Positions 3,651 to 64,000 of a stretch of DNA of 64,000 nucleotides are shown here, one piece after another. The translations under genes were made by a program, and so were the position numbers. Below the pieces are notes generated by a model that was not told the origin of the DNA, did not search any database, and saw only the letters and a list, made by a program, of their open reading frames with translations. Position 1 is the first letter of the stretch. The number at the start of each line of letters is the position of its first letter. This DNA comes from Chloroflexota bacterium (GTDB taxonomy: Bacteria; Chloroflexota; Anaerolineae; Aggregatilineales; J027). Where the stretch lies: assembly GCA_013112715.1 (NCBI GenBank), contig JABFGB010000005.1, positions 192,009 to 256,008 of the forward strand. The letters run 5' to 3'.

Positions 3651-3681
3651 GTGCAAATAATTATTGGAAAGAATACGGATC

Positions 3682-4200
3682 ATGGTCGATAGAATTATTC
3701 AAAATGACGCTCAATTTATGGAATTTGTTCTTGAGTTGTCACACAACACCGATTACAACAAATCTCTTGAGTTATACTTATCTGCCTTGTGGAAACTGCT
3801 GGATGAAAAGCGAAATTCACCCCCTACATGGGAATTATTTGCGACCTTGATAGAAAAGGCATACATTGAAGAAGCGCCGCCTTTTGATCCAGCGTGGCTT
3901 GATTTCAGTGTATCGCCTGATAGTGACCGAATATTTAAAGAGACTGATTTCGCAATAGTCCAAGACTTAATTCTATTTCAAATTGCTGATTTACATCGGA
4001 TGTCCGAGGCTGGAACTCTTTCAATTCCCGTAATGTTTCTATATACAGGCGTTGAATCACCTAGTAAAAGTTACTGGTACAACTTCCACCCTCGAAGTTT
4101 TTGGTCGTGTGCCTTTGGTGAACGAAGGTCAACAGGTCAAACGACTTGCAATTGGGGAAATTTCGCCGTACTTCTCAAATTTGGGCAAGAATACGAATAG
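3682..4200 (+). CDS. Hypothetical protein, paralog A of the ARH-flanking pair
   Basis: ORF 3664..4200 (TTG); ATG at 3682 preferred. Shares ILFQIAD.HRM, WYNFHP, TC.WG.F and a terminal GQ.YE-stop with ORF 5244..5756. AT-rich; one 60-nt line counted at 33% GC. Confidence 0.6.
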   Translation: MVDRIIQNDAQFMEFVLELSHNTDYNKSLELYLSALWKLLDEKRNSPPTWELFATLIEKAYIEEAPPFDPAWLDFSVSPDSDRIFKETDFAIVQDLILFQIADLHRMSEAGTLSIPVMFLYTGVESPSKSYWYNFHPRSFWSCAFGERRSTGQTTCNWGNFAVLLKFGQEYE

Positions 4201-4228: not shown

Positions 4229-5251
4229 ATGGATCAGCAATACATTTCTGGTTGTCTCATCGGCATGGCGCTCGGGGATGCTCTCGGCGCAGAAACCGAA
4301 TTTTTGAATATCAAAGGTATCCTCGAAAAATTCCCACCGTATGGCCCACAAGCCCCCGAGGGCAATCCGGCCCTTGTTACTGATGATACCCAAATGGCAA
4401 TCGCGGTTGGAGAGGCAATAATAGCCGCACCCAAGCCGCTTGAACTCAACAGCCTCGCCCTAGAATTTCGCCGCACTTTTTTGGCATGGTATAACGACCC
4501 TGAAAATAATCGCGCCCCAGGCAACACCTGTCTAACTGCCTGCGAGGAAATGTTTAGGGGCAAATCGTGGCTAGAGGCATCACAAATTAGCTCAAAGGGC
4601 TGTGGTGCAAATATGCGGGTCATGCCGGTTGGGGTATTGGATGTGGATACCATCACCCGTGCAGGCATTGCCCAATTACAGGCCGCCATGACACACGGAC
4701 ACCCCACCGGACTGGCTGCCGCTGATTTGACCGCCTTCGTAATTGCGGATTTGGGCAATGGCGGCACACCAAATGATTTACCCAAACGGGTGCGTGACTA
4801 TGCCCTCTCCCAACGCGAAGTCTATCATACCGATTGGCTGGGCGAATTGTGGTACAAAGCGTTTATGCTGCCAACACCGCAGGCCTATATTGCACATGGG
4901 TGGGATGAATGTCTGGGTGTCTTAGATCGGCTAGATATGGCCCTCGAAAAAATGGATCGGGAAACTGATCCCTGCCTAGCAACCGGGGCGGGTTGGGTGG
5001 CAGAACAAGCCTTTGCAACGGCCTTATTCTGTTTTTTGATGTATCCCGACGACCCGATTGCCGTAATTCGCCGAGCCGTCGTCACGAGTGGTGATTCGGA
5101 TTCCATCGCTTGTATCGCTGGGGCGTTCGCTGGAGCTTATCAAGGTATTGATTCGTGGCCCACCGATTGGGTAGAGCGGATTGAGTATCGGGATCGGATT
5201 TTGAATATAGCTAAGGCGCTTTTGAATTCAAGGGAGGAATCAAATGGATGA
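4229..5251 (+). CDS. ADP-ribosylglycohydrolase family protein (DraG/ARH-like)
   Basis: ARH metal-site motifs GMALGDALGAE, VTDDTQMA and TSGDSDSIACIAGAFAGAYQG. Confidence 0.85.
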   Translation: MDQQYISGCLIGMALGDALGAETEFLNIKGILEKFPPYGPQAPEGNPALVTDDTQMAIAVGEAIIAAPKPLELNSLALEFRRTFLAWYNDPENNRAPGNTCLTACEEMFRGKSWLEASQISSKGCGANMRVMPVGVLDVDTITRAGIAQLQAAMTHGHPTGLAAADLTAFVIADLGNGGTPNDLPKRVRDYALSQREVYHTDWLGELWYKAFMLPTPQAYIAHGWDECLGVLDRLDMALEKMDRETDPCLATGAGWVAEQAFATALFCFLMYPDDPIAVIRRAVVTSGDSDSIACIAGAFAGAYQGIDSWPTDWVERIEYRDRILNIAKALLNSREESNG

Positions 5252-23371: not shown

Positions 23372-24172
23372 ATGAAACACCATATATTTTTGAGCTATAG
23401 TCGAGAAGATATATTAATCGTGAACTTGATCAGGGATGATTTCGAGAAAGAAGGCTTCACTGTCTGGACTGATCAGCACATAAAACCCGGAGATTCTTCT
23501 TGGATCAAGCAAATACAAAAAGCCATTGAAGATAGTGGATGCGTTGTTGTCATAATGACCCCTGAAGCTAAAAATTCGGAATGGGTAGAAAAAGAAATTG
23601 AATATGCTCAGGCCCTCGATCGGCCTATCATACCGTTACTTGCAAGAGGGAATAAGGCAACAGCAGTACCGGTAGCTATTATAACCTCTCAGCATATTGA
23701 TATTAAGGAGAATCGCATTGGTGCCATACGTAGAGCATCAAATACTATTAGAGAACTTCTCAATCTTCCACCCAAACCTGAAGATTTAGCTGGATTTTGG
23801 GCAAGCAATACAGATGATTATTTCTCTTTACAGGAAGGAAAAACACTTAGAGAACTATGGGAAAATATTACGAAAGATTCTGGAATTATAATAATCCTTG
23901 ATGAAAAGCATAAATTAGTTGGCATGATAAGTATAGGAGATTTGCTCAAACGTCTGTTAGAAGAAGATTTGAGTGAAAACACCCCAATAAAGCGCCTTAT
24001 GGTACCTAAGTCAAAAATAAAGCATGTAAAAGAAACCAGTACGATGAGCGAAGTTCATAGGCTAATTGCGAACTTCGAAATCGATCAAGTACCTGTGTTA
24101 AATGAAAATGATGAGTTAACGGGTGTTGTAACAAAAAGTGAGGTGGCTGCATGGTTTAGAAAAAACCGCTGA
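23372..24172 (+). CDS. TIR domain - CBS pair (Bateman) fusion protein
   Basis: N-terminal HIFLSYSREDI...FTVWTD...VVVIMTPEAKNSEWVEKEIEYA fits a TIR_2-like fold with the conserved W...E glutamate. The C-terminal half has two CBS-like repeats (IIILDEKHKLVGMISIGDLL and IDQVPVLNENDELTGVVTKSEV). Sample lines count 28-38% GC versus ~53% in flanking gltB. Confidence 0.75.
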   Translation: MKHHIFLSYSREDILIVNLIRDDFEKEGFTVWTDQHIKPGDSSWIKQIQKAIEDSGCVVVIMTPEAKNSEWVEKEIEYAQALDRPIIPLLARGNKATAVPVAIITSQHIDIKENRIGAIRRASNTIRELLNLPPKPEDLAGFWASNTDDYFSLQEGKTLRELWENITKDSGIIIILDEKHKLVGMISIGDLLKRLLEEDLSENTPIKRLMVPKSKIKHVKETSTMSEVHRLIANFEIDQVPVLNENDELTGVVTKSEVAAWFRKNR

Positions 24173-24284
24173 AATAATAACTTTGATATCCTCGACCCTG
24201 ATAAGCACATCCCTCAAATTTGTGTACAATATTCACCGACGCCGTAGCTCAAAAACCTTTGCGGCTTTGTGTGGAGAATCTTGC

Positions 24285-26942
24285 ATGAAAAAATGCACTT
24301 TAATGATGGGAGTCTTGCTCCTGCTGCTGACCGTTTCGGGCGTAACCTTTGCTATGCCCCGTCACCAAGCCCCGCCAGAGCCAATTGCCTATGGGGATAC
24401 CGCAACAGGCAGCATTAGTGAAATTCAAACCGAAGCGCGTTATGTGATCGAGGCCACACAGGGAGATCGTTTGGTTGCCATCGCTTCGACCACCAACGGC
24501 GATCTTGACCCCTATTTAAATCTGACTTCAGTTGAAGGTACGCTGCTGGCGAGTGACGATAACAGCGGTGGTGGGACAGTGGCTCAAATCACCTTTGTTG
24601 TTCCAGCGAGCGCGGCTTATTTAATTGTGGTGACGCGCTCACCCGAAGGTGCAGGCAATACGACAGGCGACTTTGAATTAACGGTGACCAATGCCGCCGC
24701 ACCCGTTGCTACCGAAGTGACCCCTGAAGTAGAAATTCCGACCTCGACTCCTGCCACTACCTCCAACACCGCCCGTTTACAGCCACTCCAATCCGGCACG
24801 CCAACGCGGGGTAGTGTGGATACAAGCAGCACCTTTAATCTGTACTGGTTTGAAGGCACAGCCGGGCAGGAAATTAGTCTTTCGCCAGATACCACCAGCC
24901 CCTTGCAGCCCTTATTGGTACTCTATCGGGCCGACTTCAGCGAAATTCTACGCGCCCAACCGGGCCAAGTTCTAAGTGCCACCTTAGAGGACAACAGCAT
25001 CTATTTTGTTGCGGCAGCACAGGTCGAACCCGGCAGCAGCGGCGAGTATGCCTTTACCTTTGACAATGGCACGGGTGACACTGGCTCGGCCATTGACCGC
25101 GATTTCCTGTTGTATGGTCAAAATATCAGCGGCAGTGTTTCCAATACCACACCCACCACTCGTTTCCGTTTTCGGGCCGAGGCGGGGGATGCCGTCACCA
25201 TCAATATGAATGCCATCAGCGGCGATTTGGACAGCTATCTTTTATTAGTAGATTCCAGCGGCAGCACCATCGCGGAAGACGATAACAGCGGTGGCAATGG
25301 CGATGCCCAAATTAGCACGACCATGCCGACCAGCGGAGAATTTTTCATTATTGCCACTCGCTTAGGTCAAGCCCAAGGGGTGACGACAGGTGAATTTTTG
25401 TTGGCCCTGATTTCCGATGCCCCACCGCGTTTGCCCCAAGCGACCCCGCCAACCCTGCCCACTGAATATGCTGAATTCCCACGCCTGACCTATGGCGAAA
25501 GTGCTGAGGGCGAAATTAGCAATGCCGTATTCCTAACCGTCTATGTTTTTGAGGGGCGAGCCGGGGATAACGTGAATATTGTGATGCAGGCCACCGGGGG
25601 CAATCTGGACAGCTATATGGTGCTGCTGGATGATGCACGCATCCCGCTACAGGACGCTGATGACATCAGTGAAACCAACAAAAATGCTCAATTGCAATTT
25701 ACCCTGCCACGTGACGCTTTTTATGCCATTGTCGCCACCCGCTTCGATCAAGGAGAGGGAACAACGGAAGGCACTTTTGAACTCAGCCTTGACCTTGCCT
25801 CCAACGATCAAGCCCCCGGCAATCCTGTTATAGATAGGCTAGTGACCGAACGCTTGGCGGCGGGCGACACTCCCTCCGGCACCTTTGAACCACTGCGTTT
25901 CGCCAGTCTCTATTCCTTCACCGCCGTTGAAAATTCACTCATAGATTTTGCCGTGACCGCCGACGGGGGCGAAACTGGCACGTTGATTTTGACGGATGCC
26001 TTCTTGAATCCCATCAGCGTCTCCAACAACGGTGTTCTATTGGCGATTCCAGCCCCAGTGAGTGGCGACTATCTGGTCATTGTAGCCCCCCAAGCTGGCC
26101 CTGCCGCAAATATTTCCGGCGGCTTTTTTGTGGCGTTGAATGCAGGCGTAGGGGAAACCGATACCCCGCCTGAAGACGGTAATACTACAACAGGCGGCAC
26201 GGCTGCCCCTGTTGCCATCGCCTATGGCACAACCGTGCGTGGACGTATTACCGAAGATGTCACCGCCGAACAGTATGTCTTTCAGGGGCGGGGCGGCGAT
26301 ATTGTAGATATTTCCATGACCTCCGATGGCCCAGATATTCTGGATTGCTTCCTGCAACTGCTGGATGCAAACGGGGATGTCATCGAAGAAAACGACGACA
26401 TTGACCCCGGCGTTATTCGTGATTCGCTCATTACCGCCACCTTGCCGAGTGATGGTCAATATACGATTGTCGCTACCCATTTTGAAGACCCGACGGGGCA
26501 AGTTGAGCAGACCTTTGGCAACTATACGCTCACATTAGCCTATCGTGACCCCACCACCGCAGGCGTTGACCGAGAAGCACGGGCTATCAGTTTTGACCAA
26601 AGCCTTAGCGACACGATTGATGCCGATACCTATCTGTATTTCTACTATTTCACGGGCACGCAGGGGGATACTATCACCATTACAGTGGATACCACCGAGG
26701 GGAATCTAGACCCGATTCTCTATCTTTACACCTATGATTCGGCTAATCAACCGCGCCTGCTGACGGCGAATGACGATAGTCCCTTAGGTAGTACATATGA
26801 CCCGTACATTGAATACCGCCTGCCACGTACCGGAACCTATCTGATTGCCGTCACGCGCTATGCCGAAACCGCCGCCGAGCCAACCAGCGGGTCGTATACC
26901 ATTACCCTACAAAATCTGGGGGCAGGCTCCACTAGCCAGTAG
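24285..26942 (+). CDS. Secreted protein of ~7 tandem PPC-like (pre-peptidase C-terminal type) repeats
   Basis: Signal peptide MKKCTLMMGVLLLLLTVSGVTFA at ATG 24285. Recurrent ~110-aa unit contains G[DN]LD[PS]YL.L.D..G...A.DDNSGG...A.I...P..G.Y.I.ATR...G.T.G.F.L. No catalytic domain is recognisable. Confidence 0.65.
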   Translation: MKKCTLMMGVLLLLLTVSGVTFAMPRHQAPPEPIAYGDTATGSISEIQTEARYVIEATQGDRLVAIASTTNGDLDPYLNLTSVEGTLLASDDNSGGGTVAQITFVVPASAAYLIVVTRSPEGAGNTTGDFELTVTNAAAPVATEVTPEVEIPTSTPATTSNTARLQPLQSGTPTRGSVDTSSTFNLYWFEGTAGQEISLSPDTTSPLQPLLVLYRADFSEILRAQPGQVLSATLEDNSIYFVAAAQVEPGSSGEYAFTFDNGTGDTGSAIDRDFLLYGQNISGSVSNTTPTTRFRFRAEAGDAVTINMNAISGDLDSYLLLVDSSGSTIAEDDNSGGNGDAQISTTMPTSGEFFIIATRLGQAQGVTTGEFLLALISDAPPRLPQATPPTLPTEYAEFPRLTYGESAEGEISNAVFLTVYVFEGRAGDNVNIVMQATGGNLDSYMVLLDDARIPLQDADDISETNKNAQLQFTLPRDAFYAIVATRFDQGEGTTEGTFELSLDLASNDQAPGNPVIDRLVTERLAAGDTPSGTFEPLRFASLYSFTAVENSLIDFAVTADGGETGTLILTDAFLNPISVSNNGVLLAIPAPVSGDYLVIVAPQAGPAANISGGFFVALNAGVGETDTPPEDGNTTTGGTAAPVAIAYGTTVRGRITEDVTAEQYVFQGRGGDIVDISMTSDGPDILDCFLQLLDANGDVIEENDDIDPGVIRDSLITATLPSDGQYTIVATHFEDPTGQVEQTFGNYTLTLAYRDPTTAGVDREARAISFDQSLSDTIDADTYLYFYYFTGTQGDTITITVDTTEGNLDPILYLYTYDSANQPRLLTANDDSPLGSTYDPYIEYRLPRTGTYLIAVTRYAETAAEPTSGSYTITLQNLGAGSTSQ

Positions 26943-26952
26943 AACGGGTCGT

Positions 26953-28422
26953 ATGCGAAAGGCACTGTTTTTTATTACCCTGCTGTTGATAATCTCAGGC
27001 TATACACCTGCCTATAGCGATTCGTATCGGCAGCAGGGAGATCAACTCCCCTTTGGAGAGACCGTGACAGGTGAGATTACGAGCGAGGAATTTCGCCAGT
27101 TATATACATTCTCCGGCAATGAGGGGCAGGTGATCGCCATTCGCATGACCCGCGTGGAGGGTGATCTTGATCCGGTGGTGCTTCTCATGAATACCAACGG
27201 CGTCGTTTTGGGCTATAGTGACGATGAGGACGAAGGCCGCAATGCCCTGATTAGCTCCCAGCGCCTCCCCGCCAATGGCACTTATGTGGTGATTGCCACA
27301 CGCTTTGGGCACGAGCATGGCAACACGACAGGCACATACGAAATCCGCATGGACAGTCTTGGCGCAACGGCTTCCAGCGGCTCTAGCCTGAATCTAGGTA
27401 CGTCTATTGTGGGGGAAATCACCAACGAACGGCATGAGGTCATCTACACGTTTCAGGCCGAACGTGGGCAGGTCATCAATATTTATATGAAACGCACCAG
27501 TGGCAATCTTGACCCCCTCTTGGATTTGTTCGATGCCAGCGGCGGCTATCTCATCAGTGGCGATGACGACCCGAATTCCTACGGCAGTCTTAACGCCGCG
27601 ATTCTGAACTTTATGATTCCCAACAACGGGAGTTATATCATTCGGGCGACGCGCTGGGGCTATGATGCGGGTACAAGTTCGGGGAGTTTCTTGATTGAAC
27701 TGACGGAAATCCCGCCTGAAACATTGGGGACACGCCCCACCAATGCTCGCTTCATGGCCTATGATGACACCGTAGCCTCGCAAATTGATAATGAAATCTC
27801 CATCCGCTTCTTTCAATTTGATGCCACACGCGGGGATGTGATTTCCGCCGTCGCCAGCCGTGAAACAGGCAACATCTCCCCTCAACTGAGCCTACTCTAT
27901 ATGGATTTACGCCCGATCAGCGTGGGCACAACCGGTTCGGGCCAAGAGGAATCGCGTATTAGTGCGACCATTCCCGAAAATGGACGCTATTTGTTGGCGG
28001 TCTCCCGTTTTCGCGGCGCAGAGGGTACATCCGAAGGAGAGTTTTCGTTAACCCTAATTGGCCGACAGGGTATCGGCGGCGGAGATGCCCTCGAAATTGT
28101 CTACGAGGCGCAGGTGACAGGCATCATTGACAGTGCCCACGCCTCCGAAACCTACATTTTTCTAGGCGAGGAGGGTGATTTAGTCACCATCACCATGCAG
28201 CGCTTGGATGGTAATCTCGATTGCCTACTGACGCTGCAAGATGAAACAGGCAAGCAGTTGATTTTTAATGACGATATTGAACAGGGAGTGGTGCAAGATT
28301 CAAGAATTTCCCGCTTTCGTCTGCCTGCCGATGGCCTCTATCGTATCGAAGCCTCCCGTTTTGACCGCATCGCAGGCACAACCAGCGGGGCCTATTCCCT
28401 GACCCTTGTGAAAGAGAATTAG
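26953..28422 (+). CDS. Secreted protein of ~4 tandem PPC-like repeats
   Basis: Signal peptide MRKALFFITLLLIISGYTPAYS at ATG 26953. Repeats contain VEGDLDPVVLL, TSGNLDPLLDL, ETGNISPQLSL and LDGNLDCLLTL. Confidence 0.65.
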   Translation: MRKALFFITLLLIISGYTPAYSDSYRQQGDQLPFGETVTGEITSEEFRQLYTFSGNEGQVIAIRMTRVEGDLDPVVLLMNTNGVVLGYSDDEDEGRNALISSQRLPANGTYVVIATRFGHEHGNTTGTYEIRMDSLGATASSGSSLNLGTSIVGEITNERHEVIYTFQAERGQVINIYMKRTSGNLDPLLDLFDASGGYLISGDDDPNSYGSLNAAILNFMIPNNGSYIIRATRWGYDAGTSSGSFLIELTEIPPETLGTRPTNARFMAYDDTVASQIDNEISIRFFQFDATRGDVISAVASRETGNISPQLSLLYMDLRPISVGTTGSGQEESRISATIPENGRYLLAVSRFRGAEGTSEGEFSLTLIGRQGIGGGDALEIVYEAQVTGIIDSAHASETYIFLGEEGDLVTITMQRLDGNLDCLLTLQDETGKQLIFNDDIEQGVVQDSRISRFRLPADGLYRIEASRFDRIAGTTSGAYSLTLVKEN

Positions 28423-57339: not shown

Positions 57340-58073
57340 GAAACAATAATCACAAAGGCCCTCCCACAACCCTCTGTGTGACGGTGGCCCGTGTGGAACG
57401 TCGTTTTGGCGATGTTCAGGTGCTGCGTGGGGTAGACTTAAATGTTGAGCGCGGCGAGTTGGCGGCTTTGTATGGCCCATCCGGCAGCGGTAAAACGACA
57501 CTATTGAATTTGATTGGCGCATTAGATCGCCCCACCGCCGGACAAATCGCGTTTTATGGGCAGGATATTTTGCGGATGAATGATCGCGCCCGCACCAAAC
57601 TGCGCCGCAAATCCATCGGCTTTATTTTTCAGAGTTCGACGCTGCTACCAACCTACACGGCCATTGAAAACATTGACCTTGCCCTGCGTTTGCTGAATCT
57701 GAATATCTTTGAGCGCAACCGCCGTGCCAAATCTGCTTTACAAGCGGTCGGCCTCAGCGCATGGGCCAATCACGTCCCCGATGAATTAAGCGGGGGTCAG
57801 CGTCAACGGGTCGCCATTGCCCGTGCCCTCGCCATGCACCCCAAACTTATTCTTGCCGACGAGCCAACCAGCGGATTGGATACACGCAATGCCCGCCGGA
57901 TGTTAGCGCTGTTTCGCAGTATCGCCGCAACGCAGGGTACGACGTTTCTCATCGTCTCCCACGACCCAATGGTCATCGAATATGTAGACCATGCTTACGA
58001 TCTTTTTGACGGGCAGTTAACACCCCGCCTGATTGTCCGAGAAGAAACACCGCAAGAGGAAATCCCATGCTAA
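57336..58073 (+). CDS. MacB/LolD-type ABC ATPase (second, distinct)
   Basis: GPSGSGKTTLLNLIGAL, LSGGQRQRVAIARAL, LILADEPTSGLD. 4-nt overlap with the upstream ATPase. Confidence 0.9.
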   Translation: MRNNNHKGPPTTLCVTVARVERRFGDVQVLRGVDLNVERGELAALYGPSGSGKTTLLNLIGALDRPTAGQIAFYGQDILRMNDRARTKLRRKSIGFIFQSSTLLPTYTAIENIDLALRLLNLNIFERNRRAKSALQAVGLSAWANHVPDELSGGQRQRVAIARALAMHPKLILADEPTSGLDTRNARRMLALFRSIAATQGTTFLIVSHDPMVIEYVDHAYDLFDGQLTPRLIVREETPQEEIPC

Positions 58074-58942
58074 AAATGATTATGAAACAGGGTATGTCGG
58101 CCCTAATGATGATTGTGGCGATGATTGCAGGCGGCATCATCACTCGGCTTGCCATTCCCAGCGATAATGTCACAGATAGTGATTCTACCCCGTATGCTAA
58201 TGTCCAGCAGCAGGAAGCCACTCCGTCGCCTACCGCTTCAGAGACCATTCCGCCGTATACGCCCCTGCCGTCCCTGACGCCCTCGCAGACCCTCAAGCCA
58301 CCCCCTACCTTTGAGCCACCAACACTGACCCCACAGCCATCCTTGACCCCGACCCTGACGCTGACCCCAACCATCCAACTAGATGTATCGGTTCCCGGTC
58401 TCAATGGGGCAGAGACACCAACACCCTCTACCACTCCGGGCTGCGTCCCACGTGAGGATTGGACATTGACCTATACCGTCAAACGGGATGATGCACTGGC
58501 CTTAATCGCCGAGCAGTACAACACGTATGTGGATGAACTGGTCAAAGCCAACTGCCTTAAAGATAAGAATCTCATCGTCATCGGGCAGGTTTTAAGAGTA
58601 CCGGGAACCGCCCAACCCGTCCAAGCCTACGATTGCAAGGTGTGGGAAGTCCTAACCCCGTTTAATGGCACGGTAACGGTAGCAGGGGATGGCCCGATCA
58701 CCTTTAATTGGCGTGGGCCGGATGCGCCCAAATACCTCATTCGCATCTATCGGCCCGACGGCACGGTTTTTGAGCGCTTGGTGGAACTGCGTGAGAATGA
58801 GCAGATTCAGGCCAGCGAAGACCTGCGGCCCGGTGGAACCTACACATGGTATGTTTATCCACTCGACAATAACTTTGTGCAAATCCCCTGTCACGAAGGC
58901 GGCCCATGGCAGTTTACCAAAGAAGCAGCGGGAGGGGCTTGA
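58067..58942 (+). CDS. Membrane-anchored LysM-domain protein
   Basis: N-terminal TM helix, P/T-rich linker, LysM (YTVKRDDALALIAEQYNTYVDELVKAN...GQVLRVP), C-terminal beta-rich domain. Confidence 0.75.
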   Translation: MLKMIMKQGMSALMMIVAMIAGGIITRLAIPSDNVTDSDSTPYANVQQQEATPSPTASETIPPYTPLPSLTPSQTLKPPPTFEPPTLTPQPSLTPTLTLTPTIQLDVSVPGLNGAETPTPSTTPGCVPREDWTLTYTVKRDDALALIAEQYNTYVDELVKANCLKDKNLIVIGQVLRVPGTAQPVQAYDCKVWEVLTPFNGTVTVAGDGPITFNWRGPDAPKYLIRIYRPDGTVFERLVELRENEQIQASEDLRPGGTYTWYVYPLDNNFVQIPCHEGGPWQFTKEAAGGA

Positions 58943-61349: not shown

Positions 61350-62339
61350 TCAGATCGTCAGGCCCATCCGCGCATACGCATAGCGACGTTTAAAGCCGAG
61401 TTGCTCGACGGCTTCAATCAGGTTGGTCTGCCACACTGGAATTTGAATCTCAATCTTATGGCCCGGACTGAGTTCAAGGATTTCGCGCACCAACTTGACC
61501 AAGAGAGGATAAGCCAGTTCAGGCTGAGTGGGGTCTATCTCTAGGATGATATTATTTAGACCGCCCTTTTTTCTCAACGCCCCAAAACGACCAACAGCGA
61601 CTACCTGCCCATTTTTATCCTGCACCTGATAGCGGCGGCGAGTCGTCTTAGTAATATAGCTGATAATGGACATCATGATTCGGGCGGCGGCGGGTACGCG
61701 GTAGACCGATTCCGCGACTGGCTCATATTCCTGCACAATTGCCGGGGTAATGCGCTGCGCCAGCTGATAACGCGGCTGCCATTCGGATGACTTTAGGGGA
61801 GCCATGGTATAAGTGGAAGTCCATGGGGCCTCAGTGGGTGGGGTAGGGGCTTCATAATCGTAGGTGATGCTGGTCGTATAGTTCACAAACCCCAGTTTTT
61901 CATAAAGTTGTTGGGCGGGCAAATTGCCATCAATTACGTCTAATATAATCTTTTTCGCGCCGCGCTCTCGGCCCAATTTCAAACAGGCTTCAACCAATTT
62001 TCGGGCGAGACCCTTACGCCGATGATCCGGCAGTACCGCCACATTCGACACCATCCATGTATCACTTTTGCCACGCCGCCCGATATTGGCTGTCCCAATG
62101 CGTTTGCCGCCTTCCTCCCAGACGTAACCGTGCATCATATCCTTCATGGAAGGTGAAATAAGGAACAGCACCCGAAAAATGGGCCATAGTTTTTTGACTG
62201 TTCGCAGCATAACGAGGGTGGATTCTTGTTCTTCATCGTCCATATCCCATTCGGGGTGGTCGGGATACTTGGCGGCAACACTCCACACTTCCAACATGCT
62301 ATCAATATCTTTGGGCATCGTAAAGGGGCGGAGAGACAT
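61350..62339 (-). CDS. GNAT-family N-acetyltransferase (two-lobed, 329 aa)
   Basis: Acetyl-CoA loop HRRKGLARKLV. Convergent with the response regulator gene, with a small shared hairpin gacgat/atcgtc at 61341-61359. Confidence 0.65.
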   Translation of the reverse strand: MSLRPFTMPKDIDSMLEVWSVAAKYPDHPEWDMDDEEQESTLVMLRTVKKLWPIFRVLFLISPSMKDMMHGYVWEEGGKRIGTANIGRRGKSDTWMVSNVAVLPDHRRKGLARKLVEACLKLGRERGAKKIILDVIDGNLPAQQLYEKLGFVNYTTSITYDYEAPTPPTEAPWTSTYTMAPLKSSEWQPRYQLAQRITPAIVQEYEPVAESVYRVPAAARIMMSIISYITKTTRRRYQVQDKNGQVVAVGRFGALRKKGGLNNIILEIDPTQPELAYPLLVKLVREILELSPGHKIEIQIPVWQTNLIEAVEQLGFKRRYAYARMGLTI

Positions 62340-62691
62340 TTTGGATACTCCTCATTCAATTTTGGCGGTATCTATTTATACGCAAAAAGCAGTCAATTCG
62401 ATGCACATGGAGGGTAGAAAATTTTGCATACAGAATATACATTCTATTATTGTGGGTTATATGCGCCGAATTTGAATCCGTAACCACGGTTACGCATGAG
62501 TTTGTATTATGACGATAGAGTTAGTGTAGCGAATCGGCTTGAAAAGGGGAAATCAGGGGTAAGGAAGGGTAAGAAATTAACCGTTTTCAAATGGGAGTGA
62601 AATTTTTGGAGATAGCAATTCGCTCACGGGGTTAAAGCCGACGTGCTGAATCTAGATTAAACTCAGGCTGGTCAACATGAGACTATAGTTT

Positions 62692-62720
62692 TTGTGGTGG
62701 TCGCAGTTCTGAAATATACT
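62692..62720 (+). promoter_or_regulatory. Possible promoter (TTGTGG-17-TATACT) for the second TIR gene
   Basis: TTGTGG 62692-62697, TATACT 62715-62720. GTG start at 62753. Confidence 0.3.
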
Positions 62721-62752
62721 ATTGATAAGCAATATTTCATGGGGAAAATATA

Positions 62753-63742
62753 GTGGGTCATCTTTTTATCAGTTATAGCAAAAAAGATATAGATTTCGCT
62801 CGTAACCTGAAAAAATCTTTGAACGATGCAGGTTTCGATGTTTGGATGGACGAGTCGGAAATTCATCCGGGTCAAGTCTGGGATGATGTTCTTCAACAAA
62901 ATGTCTTGAGTAGTTCTGCTTTATTGGTAGTGATGTCCTCAAATTCTCGCAAATCAGATTGGGTGAAAAATGAAGTTGAATTAGCACGGGAAAAGAAAAT
63001 TCCGATCTTCCCGATTTTGTTAGAGGGTGAGGTCTGGTTTGGGCTTCGACATCTTCAATATGAGGATATGCGCGATCAAGAAAAAACAGTCAAACTCTCT
63101 ATAGAATTTACTGTCAGTTTACGCCAAACGACCTCTGACAAAGGCCATATTCCTTCAACGCCAAAGACAAATCGCCGTATTCGACTTAATGAACCCTGGG
63201 CTATTATTATTGCAGCCCTCATAAGCGGAATATGCCTCATTATTGCCGCATTAATTGCGCTTGGCGATAACAATGACAACGAGAAATCTGAATCTACTCC
63301 ACCGCAAATTGTAGAAGCGACCACTACCGTTGCTCAAACTGTATCGCCATCCAGTACACCCACCAGCACGCCGACTGCCTCTGCCACAACATCCAATATT
63401 CCTACCCAAACAAACGCCGCGACGACGATTTTTACTTCCATACCTACCGAAAGTTCGATTTTAACCACAACTGCCCCCACGACCATCGCCTATCCATGCG
63501 AGGGTCAGATTGTAGATGCTGGTTCGTATGTGACTTCACTCAATGTGGTACGCATTAGTCCATCTCCTGATGCACGATTACGTCCACCTGTCAAAGTTGG
63601 TGATGTAGTGACGATAGAGGCAAAAGAGGGAGAAACAATAGCAAATACCTGGTATCAAATAACCTATGAAGGCCCGAATGGGAGTATTTCGGGCTGGATA
63701 CCCGATGAATATCTAGCTCTATCTGAAAACTGCCCTAAATAA
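62753..63742 (+). CDS. TIR, TM, S/T-rich linker, SH3b-like domain protein
   Basis: HLFISYSKKDI...FDVWMDE...LLVVMSSNSRKSDWVKNEVELA is TIR_2-like with the conserved W...E. TM helix WAIIIAALISGICLIIAALIAL. T/S/P linker. C-terminal LNVVRISPSP...WYQITYEG..GSISGWIPDEYL is SH3b-like. Confidence 0.75.
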   Translation: MGHLFISYSKKDIDFARNLKKSLNDAGFDVWMDESEIHPGQVWDDVLQQNVLSSSALLVVMSSNSRKSDWVKNEVELAREKKIPIFPILLEGEVWFGLRHLQYEDMRDQEKTVKLSIEFTVSLRQTTSDKGHIPSTPKTNRRIRLNEPWAIIIAALISGICLIIAALIALGDNNDNEKSESTPPQIVEATTTVAQTVSPSSTPTSTPTASATTSNIPTQTNAATTIFTSIPTESSILTTTAPTTIAYPCEGQIVDAGSYVTSLNVVRISPSPDARLRPPVKVGDVVTIEAKEGETIANTWYQITYEGPNGSISGWIPDEYLALSENCPK

Positions 63743-63761
63743 ATTCTAGCTGGAGGTCGAA

Positions 63762-63902
63762 ATGAGAACTTTTTCTGTTGTGATTTCAACTATTTTACTG
63801 GCTTCAGCCTTGTCTATCACTGAAACTAGAATTGCCAATGCCCAAGACACAACCAGACCTGTTCAATGCGGCGAAATCATCGAGGCTGAATTAAGCCACT
63901 AG
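63762..63902 (+). pseudogene. Short signal-peptide ORF (46 aa), possibly the truncated 5' end of another PPC-type secreted protein
   Basis: ggaggt RBS, then MRTFSVVISTILLASALSITETRIANAQDTTRPVQCGEIIEAELSH-stop. The mature N-terminus resembles the start of the PPC repeats at 24285 and 26953 (..YGDTATGSI.., ..FGETVTGEI..). Confidence 0.3.
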
Positions 63903-64000
63903 TCGAAAGTGATCAGCGAACAAGAGACGATCAGGGTGATGCCAAACATTCTGTTGGGTGTGCATAAAAGCATCAACTGAAGCCTGCAACTCATCCAAGG
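63891..64000 (-). CDS. 3' end of a convergent ORF running off the window (unknown; faintly transposase-C-terminus-like)
   Basis: Reverse frame reads ...LDELQASVDAFMHTQQNVWHHPDRLLFADHFRLVA-stop. Only 36 codons are visible. Confidence 0.25.
   Translation of the reverse strand, partial: LDELQASVDAFMHTQQNVWHHPDRLLFADHFRLVA

Follow-up and report, generated by a model that had tools for sequence, protein, structure and literature searches.

A predicted type-II TIR protein with an extracytoplasmic, Cys-bracketed SH3b module: a candidate envelope-sensing conflict effector of Chloroflexota

[quoted passage not shown] To our knowledge, the bacterial immune sensors that have been characterised nearly all recognise invaders in the cytoplasm, and so does every bacterial TIR system characterised so far. 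A 2024 survey of TIR systems in E. coli reported that transmembrane (TM) domains and ectodomains like those of Toll-like receptors (TLRs) seem to be absent from bacterial TIR systems (PMC11350192). The question is raised by a gene in a 64,000-nt stretch of DNA from a Chloroflexota bacterium (GCA_013112715.1, contig JABFGB010000005.1, positions 192,009 to 256,008; hereafter the window). The encoded protein joins a TIR domain, one TM helix, a linker and an SH3b module in that order, an architecture and topology that are very probably as we describe them below. We propose, with a probability of roughly 0.55, that it is a type-II single-pass, receptor-like TIR effector of the conflict or programmed-cell-death kind which, in filamentous Chloroflexota of the Anaerolineae type, would do its sensing at the envelope; this function we infer. 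The parts of the gene are as follows.

62753..63742, + strand: whole gene, TIR - TM - P/T/S linker - Cys-bracketed SH3b (GTG start, 329 aa)
62753..63142, + strand: TIR domain, aa 1-130, predicted cytoplasmic (Pfam TIR_2, AlphaFold2 (AF2), Foldseek)
62972..62974, + strand: codon of E74, predicted catalytic glutamate of W70-x3-E74 (alignment to solved TIRs)
63194..63262, + strand: single TM helix, aa 148-170, predicted signal-anchor, N-in/C-out (Kyte-Doolittle, flank charges, AF2)
63269..63493, + strand: P/T/S-rich linker, aa 173-247, predicted extracytoplasmic (75 aa, 55% S+T+P)
63494..63739, + strand: Cys-bracketed SH3b (SH3_3-type) module, aa 248-329 (Pfam SH3_3, AF2, Foldseek)
63497-63499 and 63731-63733, + strand: predicted disulfide pair C249 / C327, bracketing the module

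Domains of the TIR-TM-SH3b protein

The open reading frame (ORF) lies exactly where an initial annotation of this DNA had placed it. The closest homologues, which read MGHLFISYSK or MSHIFISYSK from residue 1, make its GTG start credible, and a GGGGA purine tract lies 9-13 nt 5′ of the start codon. The identical protein is encoded in the NCBI metagenome-assembled genome (MAG) GCA_016860965.1 (Chloroflexota bacterium BroJett018; BOKL01000004.1, 383,495 bp). On that contig the gene lies ~270 bp from the end, so that the window corresponds to its last 64 kb. Five independent Logan assemblies encode the same protein, which makes six assemblies from several samples.

Its N-terminal domain assigns the protein to the TIR superfamily. 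Pfam TIR_2 (PF13676) matched aa 5-109 with 87.5 bits against a cutoff of 28, the TIR (PF01582) and ThsB_TIR (PF08937) profiles passed their cutoffs too, and an AF2 model computed from a 37-sequence alignment reached a predicted local distance difference test score (pLDDT) of ~87-97 over aa 1-130. The model has the flavodoxin-like TIR fold, and its Foldseek matches included the TIR structures of SARM1, SPARTA and TLR1/2, with target-normalised template-modelling scores of 0.78-0.84 for the TIR domain of Hydra TRR-2 and 0.77 for AbTir (probability 1.00). The annotation had the domain keeping an SDW...E motif, and S68, D69, W70 and E74 are indeed there, within 'KSDWVKNE'. In phmmer alignments W70 and E74 fall on the Trp and the catalytic Glu of AbTIR ('KDWTNYE'), PdTIR ('KEWPQKE') and TIR-STING ('SEWSKFE'). 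Nor has the catalytic residue been lost among relatives: in their full-length alignment (A3, 37 sequences), no column other than E74 is invariant. Judged by its active-site residues (the FISY strand, W70 and the predicted catalytic E74), the domain is predicted to be of the enzymatic, NAD+-cleaving type.

The strongly hydrophobic helix and the ~70-aa S/T/P-rich linker that had been described downstream of the TIR domain were both recovered. The best 19-aa Kyte-Doolittle window scored 3.04 (aa 150-169), AF2 placed a helix at 148-170, and the flanks of this helix are KTNRRIRLNE on the N side (four K/R) and DNNDNEKSE on the C side (net -3). The linker was modelled as disordered (pLDDT ~50-57), and homologues have equivalent P/T-rich linkers; its length, taken as ~0.3 nm per residue, would allow it to bridge some 20 nm of wall.

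The C-terminal domain is an SH3b domain of the bacterial SH3 clan, as annotated, with the caveat that the protein's own Pfam score is below threshold: scanned alone, the module matched positions 5-53 of the 54 in SH3_3 (PF08239) at E 7.8e-5 and 23.2 bits, where the cutoff is 27, and GW and SH3_2 more weakly. The orthologous module of the homologue P0007 scored 32.6 bits, above the SH3_3 cutoff, and 74 of the 99 relatives counted below also matched this family. Modelled alone (aa 241-329) from a 32-sequence alignment, the module took an SH3-like beta-barrel fold with a pLDDT of 92 and a predicted template-modelling score of 0.80, and nearly all Foldseek matches of this model were SH3 domains. 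The best was the Psm endolysin 4krt (E 2.9e-3, query-normalised template-modelling score 0.61), and the other top matches were SH3b wall-binding domains from endolysins, amidases and NlpC/P60 enzymes (YrvJ, CPF_0587, PlySb, NlpC/P60-SH3b, LytB and lysostaphin). The protein has only three cysteines, at 161 (within the TM helix), 249 and 327, and a disulfide between C249 and C327 is the natural reading because the only cysteines outside the TM helix flank the module.

The gene is AT-shifted, as had been claimed. Its GC content is 43.6% versus 51.3% for the window, a value equally low in only 2.9% of 990-bp windows, and its GC content at third codon positions (GC3) is 0.367 versus 0.53-0.60 in the 12 preceding neighbour genes. 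The annotated GC values of 27%, 33% and 50% were reproduced for the 60-nt lines starting at 62761, 62701 and 62821, respectively. Such foreign composition is in keeping with a mobile or accessory gene, of the sort that typically makes up conflict systems.

The module family, the chassis and the membrane topology

The C-terminal module alone is too short and divergent for a word-index search, which found no match. We describe the family from a profile (A1) of the modules of our protein and the homologues P0002 and P0007, used in an exhaustive HMMER search of 1.84e9 representatives. At E<=1e-3 this search returned 744 proteins, and at E<=1e-10 it returned 109. Among the 150 best matches, about 100 carry a single full-length copy of the module at the extreme C terminus. 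Among 99 single-module proteins, which we used for counts of architecture and conservation, Pfam scans recognised SH3_3 in 74 (counted at E<=1e-3), GW in 18, TIR_2 in 40, EAD8 in six, EAD1 in one and Trypsin_2 in five, and the architectures divided as follows.

TIR-TM-module: 40 of 99
EAD-TM-module (EAD8 or EAD1): 7 of 99
N-terminal signal peptide or anchor, then module: 37 of 99
Short cytoplasmic tail, then TM, then module: 9 of 99

From these contexts the module is predicted to be extracytoplasmic throughout the family, and it appears to be joined via one TM helix to interchangeable cytoplasmic outputs, namely TIR domains of several subfamilies or EAD8/EAD1 adaptors. EADs are adaptor domains of predicted conflict and apoptosis-like systems in multicellular bacteria (PMC7159879, PMC8195603). 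C249, G314 and C327 are invariant across the 99 relatives and conservation reaches at least 90% at P248, W300, Y301, I303, W315 and P328, giving the signature YPC ... WYxI ... GW ... C-P. Our protein keeps every conserved residue of both its domains, including E74, C249, G314, W315 and C327. The module resembles the SH3b and GW domains of lysostaphin, Psm endolysins, LytB, NlpC/P60 proteins and Listeria Auto and InlB in its fold, its weak 'TWYQ...GW' signature and its predicted extracytoplasmic position; unlike them, it belongs to a subfamily with an invariant bracketing Cys pair (YPC...C-P), always lies at the very C terminus and is fused to signalling domains across the membrane rather than to hydrolases only.

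The family also speaks to membrane topology. In all 40 representatives with both a TIR domain and the module, exactly one TM helix lies between the two, and K/R residues are commoner on the TIR side of the helix in 35 of them, the reverse being true of one and four being tied. This charge bias, the invariant Cys pair and the occurrence of the module behind signal peptides elsewhere are why we place the module outside and the TIR domain in the cytoplasm, and they agree with the N-in/C-out topology of the annotation, itself a prediction. The opposite orientation, with the TIR domain outside and the SH3b module inside, was considered and ruled out on the same three grounds.

If the module family exchanges its outputs, full-length homologues of our protein exchange their ectodomains. 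They share a very similar N-terminal TIR domain, one TM helix at ~150-185 whose N side carries K/R, and a linker rich in P/T, and their C termini vary among FGE-sulfatase (PF03781), a PD40/TolB-type propeller, a DsbA-like thioredoxin, SH3_3 and an uncharacterised domain with four conserved cysteines. A scan for TIR loci in one genome per species (alignment A5) gave 79 loci, nearly all from Anaerolineae, Aggregatilineales or MAGs labelled 'Chloroflexota', with two or three loci apiece in 13 genomes. Roughly half of the 79 encode single-TM proteins, and about twenty encode a soluble paralogue of ~470 aa. Around P0002, P0003, P0004 and P0014 the neighbouring genes are housekeeping ones (uvrC, mraZ-rsmH-PBP, transporters, GNAT).

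What does the SH3b module do on such a chassis? Beyond the TIR proteins, it occurs on secreted trypsin-like and subtilisin-like proteases and on many small proteins without a cytoplasmic domain, which is typical of targeting modules like the GW and SH3b domains of autolysins. Module and linker might accordingly serve to tether the protein to the wall or septum, with the TIR domain triggered from the cytoplasm, as in soluble bacterial TIR effectors, for instance by phage components or nucleotide signals, and no information crossing the membrane; a soluble TIR-CBS protein encoded elsewhere in the window (23372-24172) means that cytoplasmic sensing by TIR proteins exists in this genome. We regard a pure anchor as distinctly unlikely, since the cytoplasmic part consists of the TIR domain and ~17 juxtamembrane residues with no recognisable intracellular sensor domain, and since relatives keep the chassis while swapping the ectodomain for ligand-binding or enzymatic folds (FGE-sulfatase/C-type-lectin fold, PD40, DsbA-like), a sensor-like pattern.

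Several further observations concern these families. The soluble paralogue (P0009-like, ~460-480 aa) combines a closely related TIR domain with an uncharacterised C-terminal domain and no TM helix, and is widespread in Anaerolineae (loci L018, L023, L024, L027, L028, L035, L036, L038, L040-L042, L045, L049, L055 and others, with the match at 5001). The next gene, in many cases overlapping by 4 nt, usually encodes a ~200-aa acyltransferase-like protein that starts '...PE(A/V)N...L(A/I)R(F/L)(I/L)F...GW...PHTSNWD', and the two form a separate conserved TIR gene pair. The uncharacterised ~130-aa extracytoplasmic domain with four conserved cysteines (hereafter 4-Cys; 'LT(L/I)F...DS(L/F)TLYVP ... 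C(F)RL ... P.P..C ... ADVFW ... C.....C') had no match in a Pfam scan and is shuffled among TIR-TM proteins, secreted proteins of the partner type described below and SH3b-module proteins; its carriers are P0002, P0004 and P0133 and the genes L031:5001-6788, L031:7720-8931, L034:5001-6434 and L048:1705-3255 (- strand). On two metagenome contigs, the genes L095:2199-3236 (- strand) and L096:6474-7511 (+ strand) encode TIR-TM-linker-SH3b proteins with a TIR domain of another subfamily (FISYQR type). Each has an in-frame TAA within the P/T linker, which may mean that the gene is split, recoded or a pseudogene, and an intact partner gene downstream.

A secreted partner gene and its local truncation

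Immediately 3′ of the TIR-TM-SH3b gene, the window holds the beginning of a second gene and then the start of what is probably an insertion.

63762..63902, + strand: 46-codon partner remnant, signal peptide and '...PVQCGEIIEAELSH' / '...AQDTTRPVQCGEIIEAELSH', then TAG (alignment; partner hidden Markov model (HMM) E 9.7e-4)
63903..64000, - strand: start of a probable repeated, insertion-sequence-like (IS-like) element; an open frame '...SLDELQASVDAFMHTQQNVWHHPDRLLFADHFRLVA' ending in a stop runs off the contig

The remnant begins 20 nt after the stop of the TIR gene, like the partners at other loci, and the genes directly 3′ of P0002 (locus L013) and P0007 (L007) begin in the same way; full-length partners have ~300-345 aa. 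When an HMM of full-length partners was run against all six-frame ORFs of all loci, a partner was found immediately downstream of the module gene at each of six loci (the window, L007, L013, L031, L034 and L079) and at none of the ~57 TIR loci that lack the module (Fisher p ~1.5e-8). As an independent sample we took metagenome contigs found with a degenerate DNA pattern for W-Y-Q-I ... G-W-I-P-x-E-Y. The partner adjoined the module gene in four of four of these loci, bringing the count to 10 of 10; one of the four, L093, has no TIR domain at all and pairs the partner with a protein of the short tail-TM-module type. Because the partner is adjacent to module genes and absent beside module-less TIR genes, it tracks the SH3b module and not the TIR domain.

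In its C-terminal half, the partner gave sub-threshold matches to pre-peptidase C-terminal (PPC) domains (E 1.5e-4 to 0.036), which suggest PPC-like beta-sandwich domains. P0133 unites in one chain a signal peptide and an N-terminal domain of the partner type, 39% identical to the partner at L031 (E 2e-28), with a following 4-Cys domain and SH3b module, and at L031 and L094 an extra secreted protein bearing the module is encoded after the partner. By the logic of gene fusion and gene neighbourhood, these extracytoplasmic modules (partner, 4-Cys and SH3b) probably work together physically.

In the window the partner ends at codon 47 (TAG at 63900), and the partner HMM found no partner-like coding sequence on the + strand beyond it among the six-frame ORFs of the window. 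All six assemblies that contain the TIR-TM-SH3b gene end 0-116 nt past this point. Because the partner is truncated and all six assemblies break there, the simplest explanation is that a repeated element, probably a mobile one, sits in the partner gene, and an IS-like element is the probable cause of the truncation. Scanned against Pfam, the minus-strand fragment of 41 aa had no match, and an exact-match search of metagenome contigs for the sequence past the truncation found no copies.

With its partner truncated, the system in this genome may be incomplete or may act without the partner. It might even be the inactive, decaying remains of a two-gene cassette that came by horizontal transfer and lost its partner to an insertion: the partner has been cut to 46 codons ahead of a probable repeat where every assembly breaks, the base composition of the gene is foreign, and the related cassette at L095/L096 has an in-frame stop in its linker. 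Such decay is, however, highly unlikely in our estimation, given that six assemblies from several samples carry the TIR-TM-SH3b ORF intact and in identical form and that all conserved residues of both domains are kept.

The window also contains a second pairing of a TIR gene with a gene for a secreted protein. At 23372-24172 (+ strand), where the GC content of the window is lowest (minimum of 0.36 over 990 bp), lies the gene of the soluble TIR-CBS protein mentioned above (266 aa; TIR_2, 84 bits, and two CBS domains; 'SEWVEKE' as its W-x3-E motif), whose TIR domain is 34% identical to that of the TIR-TM-SH3b protein. It is followed by genes for a secreted 934-aa protein with at least four PPC repeats (111 bits; 24138-26942, + strand) and for a PPC-like protein (26845-28419, + strand), so that a TIR gene followed by a secreted PPC-domain protein occurs twice within 64 kb.

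Proposed function and genomic setting

How might the protein work? TIR enzymes, among them SARM1, AbTir, plant TIRs and ThsB, are activated by oligomerisation. In the mechanism that we propose, the SH3b module would bind a glycan or peptide of the cell envelope, a secreted partner, or both; an event at the envelope, such as contact with an invader, damage to the wall, or a partner that is lost or modified, would alter the clustering of the ectodomains; and this would gather the cytoplasmic TIR domains into an active state in which they would cleave NAD+, acting by depletion or by a signal derived from ADP-ribose. The affected cell would then halt its growth or die, and the rest of the filament would be protected. 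Growth arrest or death of one cell in a filament fits the conflict-system theme of multicellular bacteria (PMC7159879, PMC8195603).

The enzymatic half of this proposal leans on AbTir, PdTIR, ThsB, SARM1, TIR-STING and SPARTA TIR-APAZ, which share the 'FISY' strand and the W-x3-E motif with our TIR domain and are its best sequence or structure matches; activation by oligomerisation is expected here by analogy with them. Those proteins are soluble, and what regulates them is a cytoplasmic sensor or partner (ThsA, Argonaute, STING, an ARM domain), whereas the other parts of ours are a TM helix and a predicted extracytoplasmic domain only. We considered assignment to Thoeris and rejected it: the NCBIfam model for type III ThcB4 scored 50.5 bits against a cutoff of 220 and covered the TIR region only, the PADLOC ThsB matches were likewise confined to the TIR region, and there is no ThsA. 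Beside the window gene and at the homologue loci examined, we found no ThsA-like (SIR2/Macro/SLOG/TM) or other signal-receiving effector gene.

The annotation had also likened the protein to a TLR. The likeness holds insofar as one TM helix separates a predicted extracellular binding domain from a cytoplasmic TIR domain in a single-pass protein, as in TLR and interleukin-1 (IL-1) receptors, whose families have likewise diversified through ectodomain variation and paralogy. It fails in orientation, which is inverted (type II here, with the N-terminal TIR domain in and the C-terminal ectodomain out, versus type I), and in the absence of leucine-rich repeats (LRRs) or Ig domains. Moreover, our TIR domain keeps the catalytic Glu of enzymatic TIRs, whereas those of TLRs are scaffolds. 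The resemblance is best described as an analogy that would have arisen by independent assembly, rather than as homology of the whole architecture.

Nearer in lineage are the NTP-dependent conflict systems described by Kaur, Burroughs, Iyer and Aravind (2020, 2021). As there, the lineage is filamentous Chloroflexota, relatives of our protein being nearly all from filamentous Anaerolineae or Aggregatilineales, and the effector vocabulary is shared (TIR, trypsin, EAD8/EAD1 adaptors, FGS/FGE-sulfatase sensors), with TIR, trypsin and EAD domains exchanged on a common sensor module. In those papers, extracellular bacterial SH3 domains after TM segments are noted for GAP1-N2 GTPase systems only (PMC7159879, PMC8195603). 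Unlike those systems, ours has no adjacent STAND, MoxR-vWA or GTPase core in the window or at the homologue loci examined.

Several points weigh against an envelope-sensing conflict effector. Every functional statement about members of this family is drawn from computational analysis, and the topology follows from the positive-inside rule and context. The full-length PADLOC and NCBIfam matches span the TIR region only, the SH3_3 score of 23.2 bits lies under the Pfam cutoff and the Foldseek E-values of the module are modest (2.9e-3 at best). SH3b domains are often mere wall anchors, and this one, which secreted proteases of the trypsin-like and subtilisin-like kinds carry as well, could serve to localise the protein instead of sensing. 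No recognised defence genes (ThsA, STAND NTPase, MoxR-vWA) lie beside the window gene or the homologues examined, and with its partner truncated the copy in this genome may be non-functional.

The surroundings of the gene also invite a reading in which it serves the cell's own envelope. Upstream of it lie the following.

62340..62752, strand not applicable: AT-rich intergenic spacer of 413 bp (GC 38.5%), between the divergent GNAT acetyltransferase and TIR genes
61350-62339, - strand: divergent GNAT acetyltransferase, 329 aa, the upstream neighbour
58067-58942 to 61340, + strand: HlyD/CzcB-type adaptor, two ABC ATPases, LysM protein, HAMP histidine kinase and OmpR-type response regulator

A LysM protein and a two-component system thus stand upstream in the window, the homologues P0002 and P0004 adjoin the mraZ-rsmH-ftsL-PBP division cluster, and neither the window nor the homologue loci examined offer a defence-island context. 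The PDB relatives of the SH3b module are wall-binding domains, and the type-II layout is that of PknB and PrkC: like these and Stk1, PASTA Ser/Thr kinases in which a cytoplasmic catalytic domain is linked by one TM helix to extracellular domains that bind wall ligands, and which are activated by ligand-dependent clustering, the protein might be a housekeeping sensor of envelope status. Its SH3b module would read peptidoglycan or the sheath, and its TIR domain would give an NAD-derived signal or a local change in NAD to govern growth, septation, filament breakage or dormancy. The output is nonetheless a TIR domain and not a kinase, the input is SH3b and not PASTA, and the two groups have no sequence relationship. 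Because the gene has foreign composition (GC3 0.367), its distribution is patchy with several paralogues that swap ectodomains, EAD8/EAD1 adaptors stand in for the TIR domain in relatives, and the partner gene tolerates truncation, an accessory conflict gene fits better than core regulation of the envelope. We know EAD8/EAD1 adaptors only from predicted conflict systems, and we consider a housekeeping sensor rather unlikely.

Filamentous Chloroflexota may own a set of cell-surface pattern-recognition receptors, built on a type-II TIR-TM chassis with swappable ectodomains, some with a secreted PPC-domain co-receptor, that would cluster enzymatic TIR domains upon contact with invaders or wall damage. 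We put this forward tentatively, as possible though doubtful. By a bolder extension, reasoning from TLR-MyD88 signalling, the membrane TIR might signal to soluble TIR proteins such as TIR-CBS (23372-24172) through TIR-TIR contact.

The individual domains are already known, and public databases label the protein 'TIR domain-containing'. A literature search, which was not exhaustive, found no description of TIR-TM-SH3b proteins, TLR-like bacterial receptors, the Cys-bracketed SH3b subfamily or the PPC-like partner. The TIR-TM-ectodomain family is large and lineage-specific, and it combines a TIR domain predicted to be of the enzymatic type with swappable extracytoplasmic domains and a tightly linked secreted partner. 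It thereby makes testable whether bacteria, notably multicellular filamentous ones, wire surface receptors to TIR-mediated NAD signalling or cell death. If they do, the family would be an independently evolved bacterial counterpart of TLR signalling and the first bacterial immune TIR to be triggered from outside the cell. The analysis also yields the Cys-bracketed SH3b subfamily, which had no name before, together with a family of partner proteins and the 4-Cys ectodomain.

Some minor observations concern the flanking and more distant DNA. The AT-rich spacer upstream of the gene had been given as 413 bp, which is exactly the length of 62340-62752, and it presumably holds the promoters of both divergent genes. 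An Rfam scan of 62200-64000 gave no match at E<=0.1 and nothing informative in the spacer, and a promoter and terminator scan of the same interval found generic promoter-like hexamers only. GNAT genes also adjoin the TIR homologues P0014 and P0003, perhaps meaningfully, perhaps by chance. A second low-GC patch at ~3.2-3.7 kb of the window is associated with a 178-aa ORF without a Pfam match (3664-4200, + strand), and directly 3′ of this ORF lies a gene for an ADP-ribosylglycohydrolase (PF03747, 216 bits; 4229-5251, + strand). A link of this enzyme to ADP-ribose or NAD metabolism is possible, though it lies 58 kb from the TIR-TM-SH3b gene.

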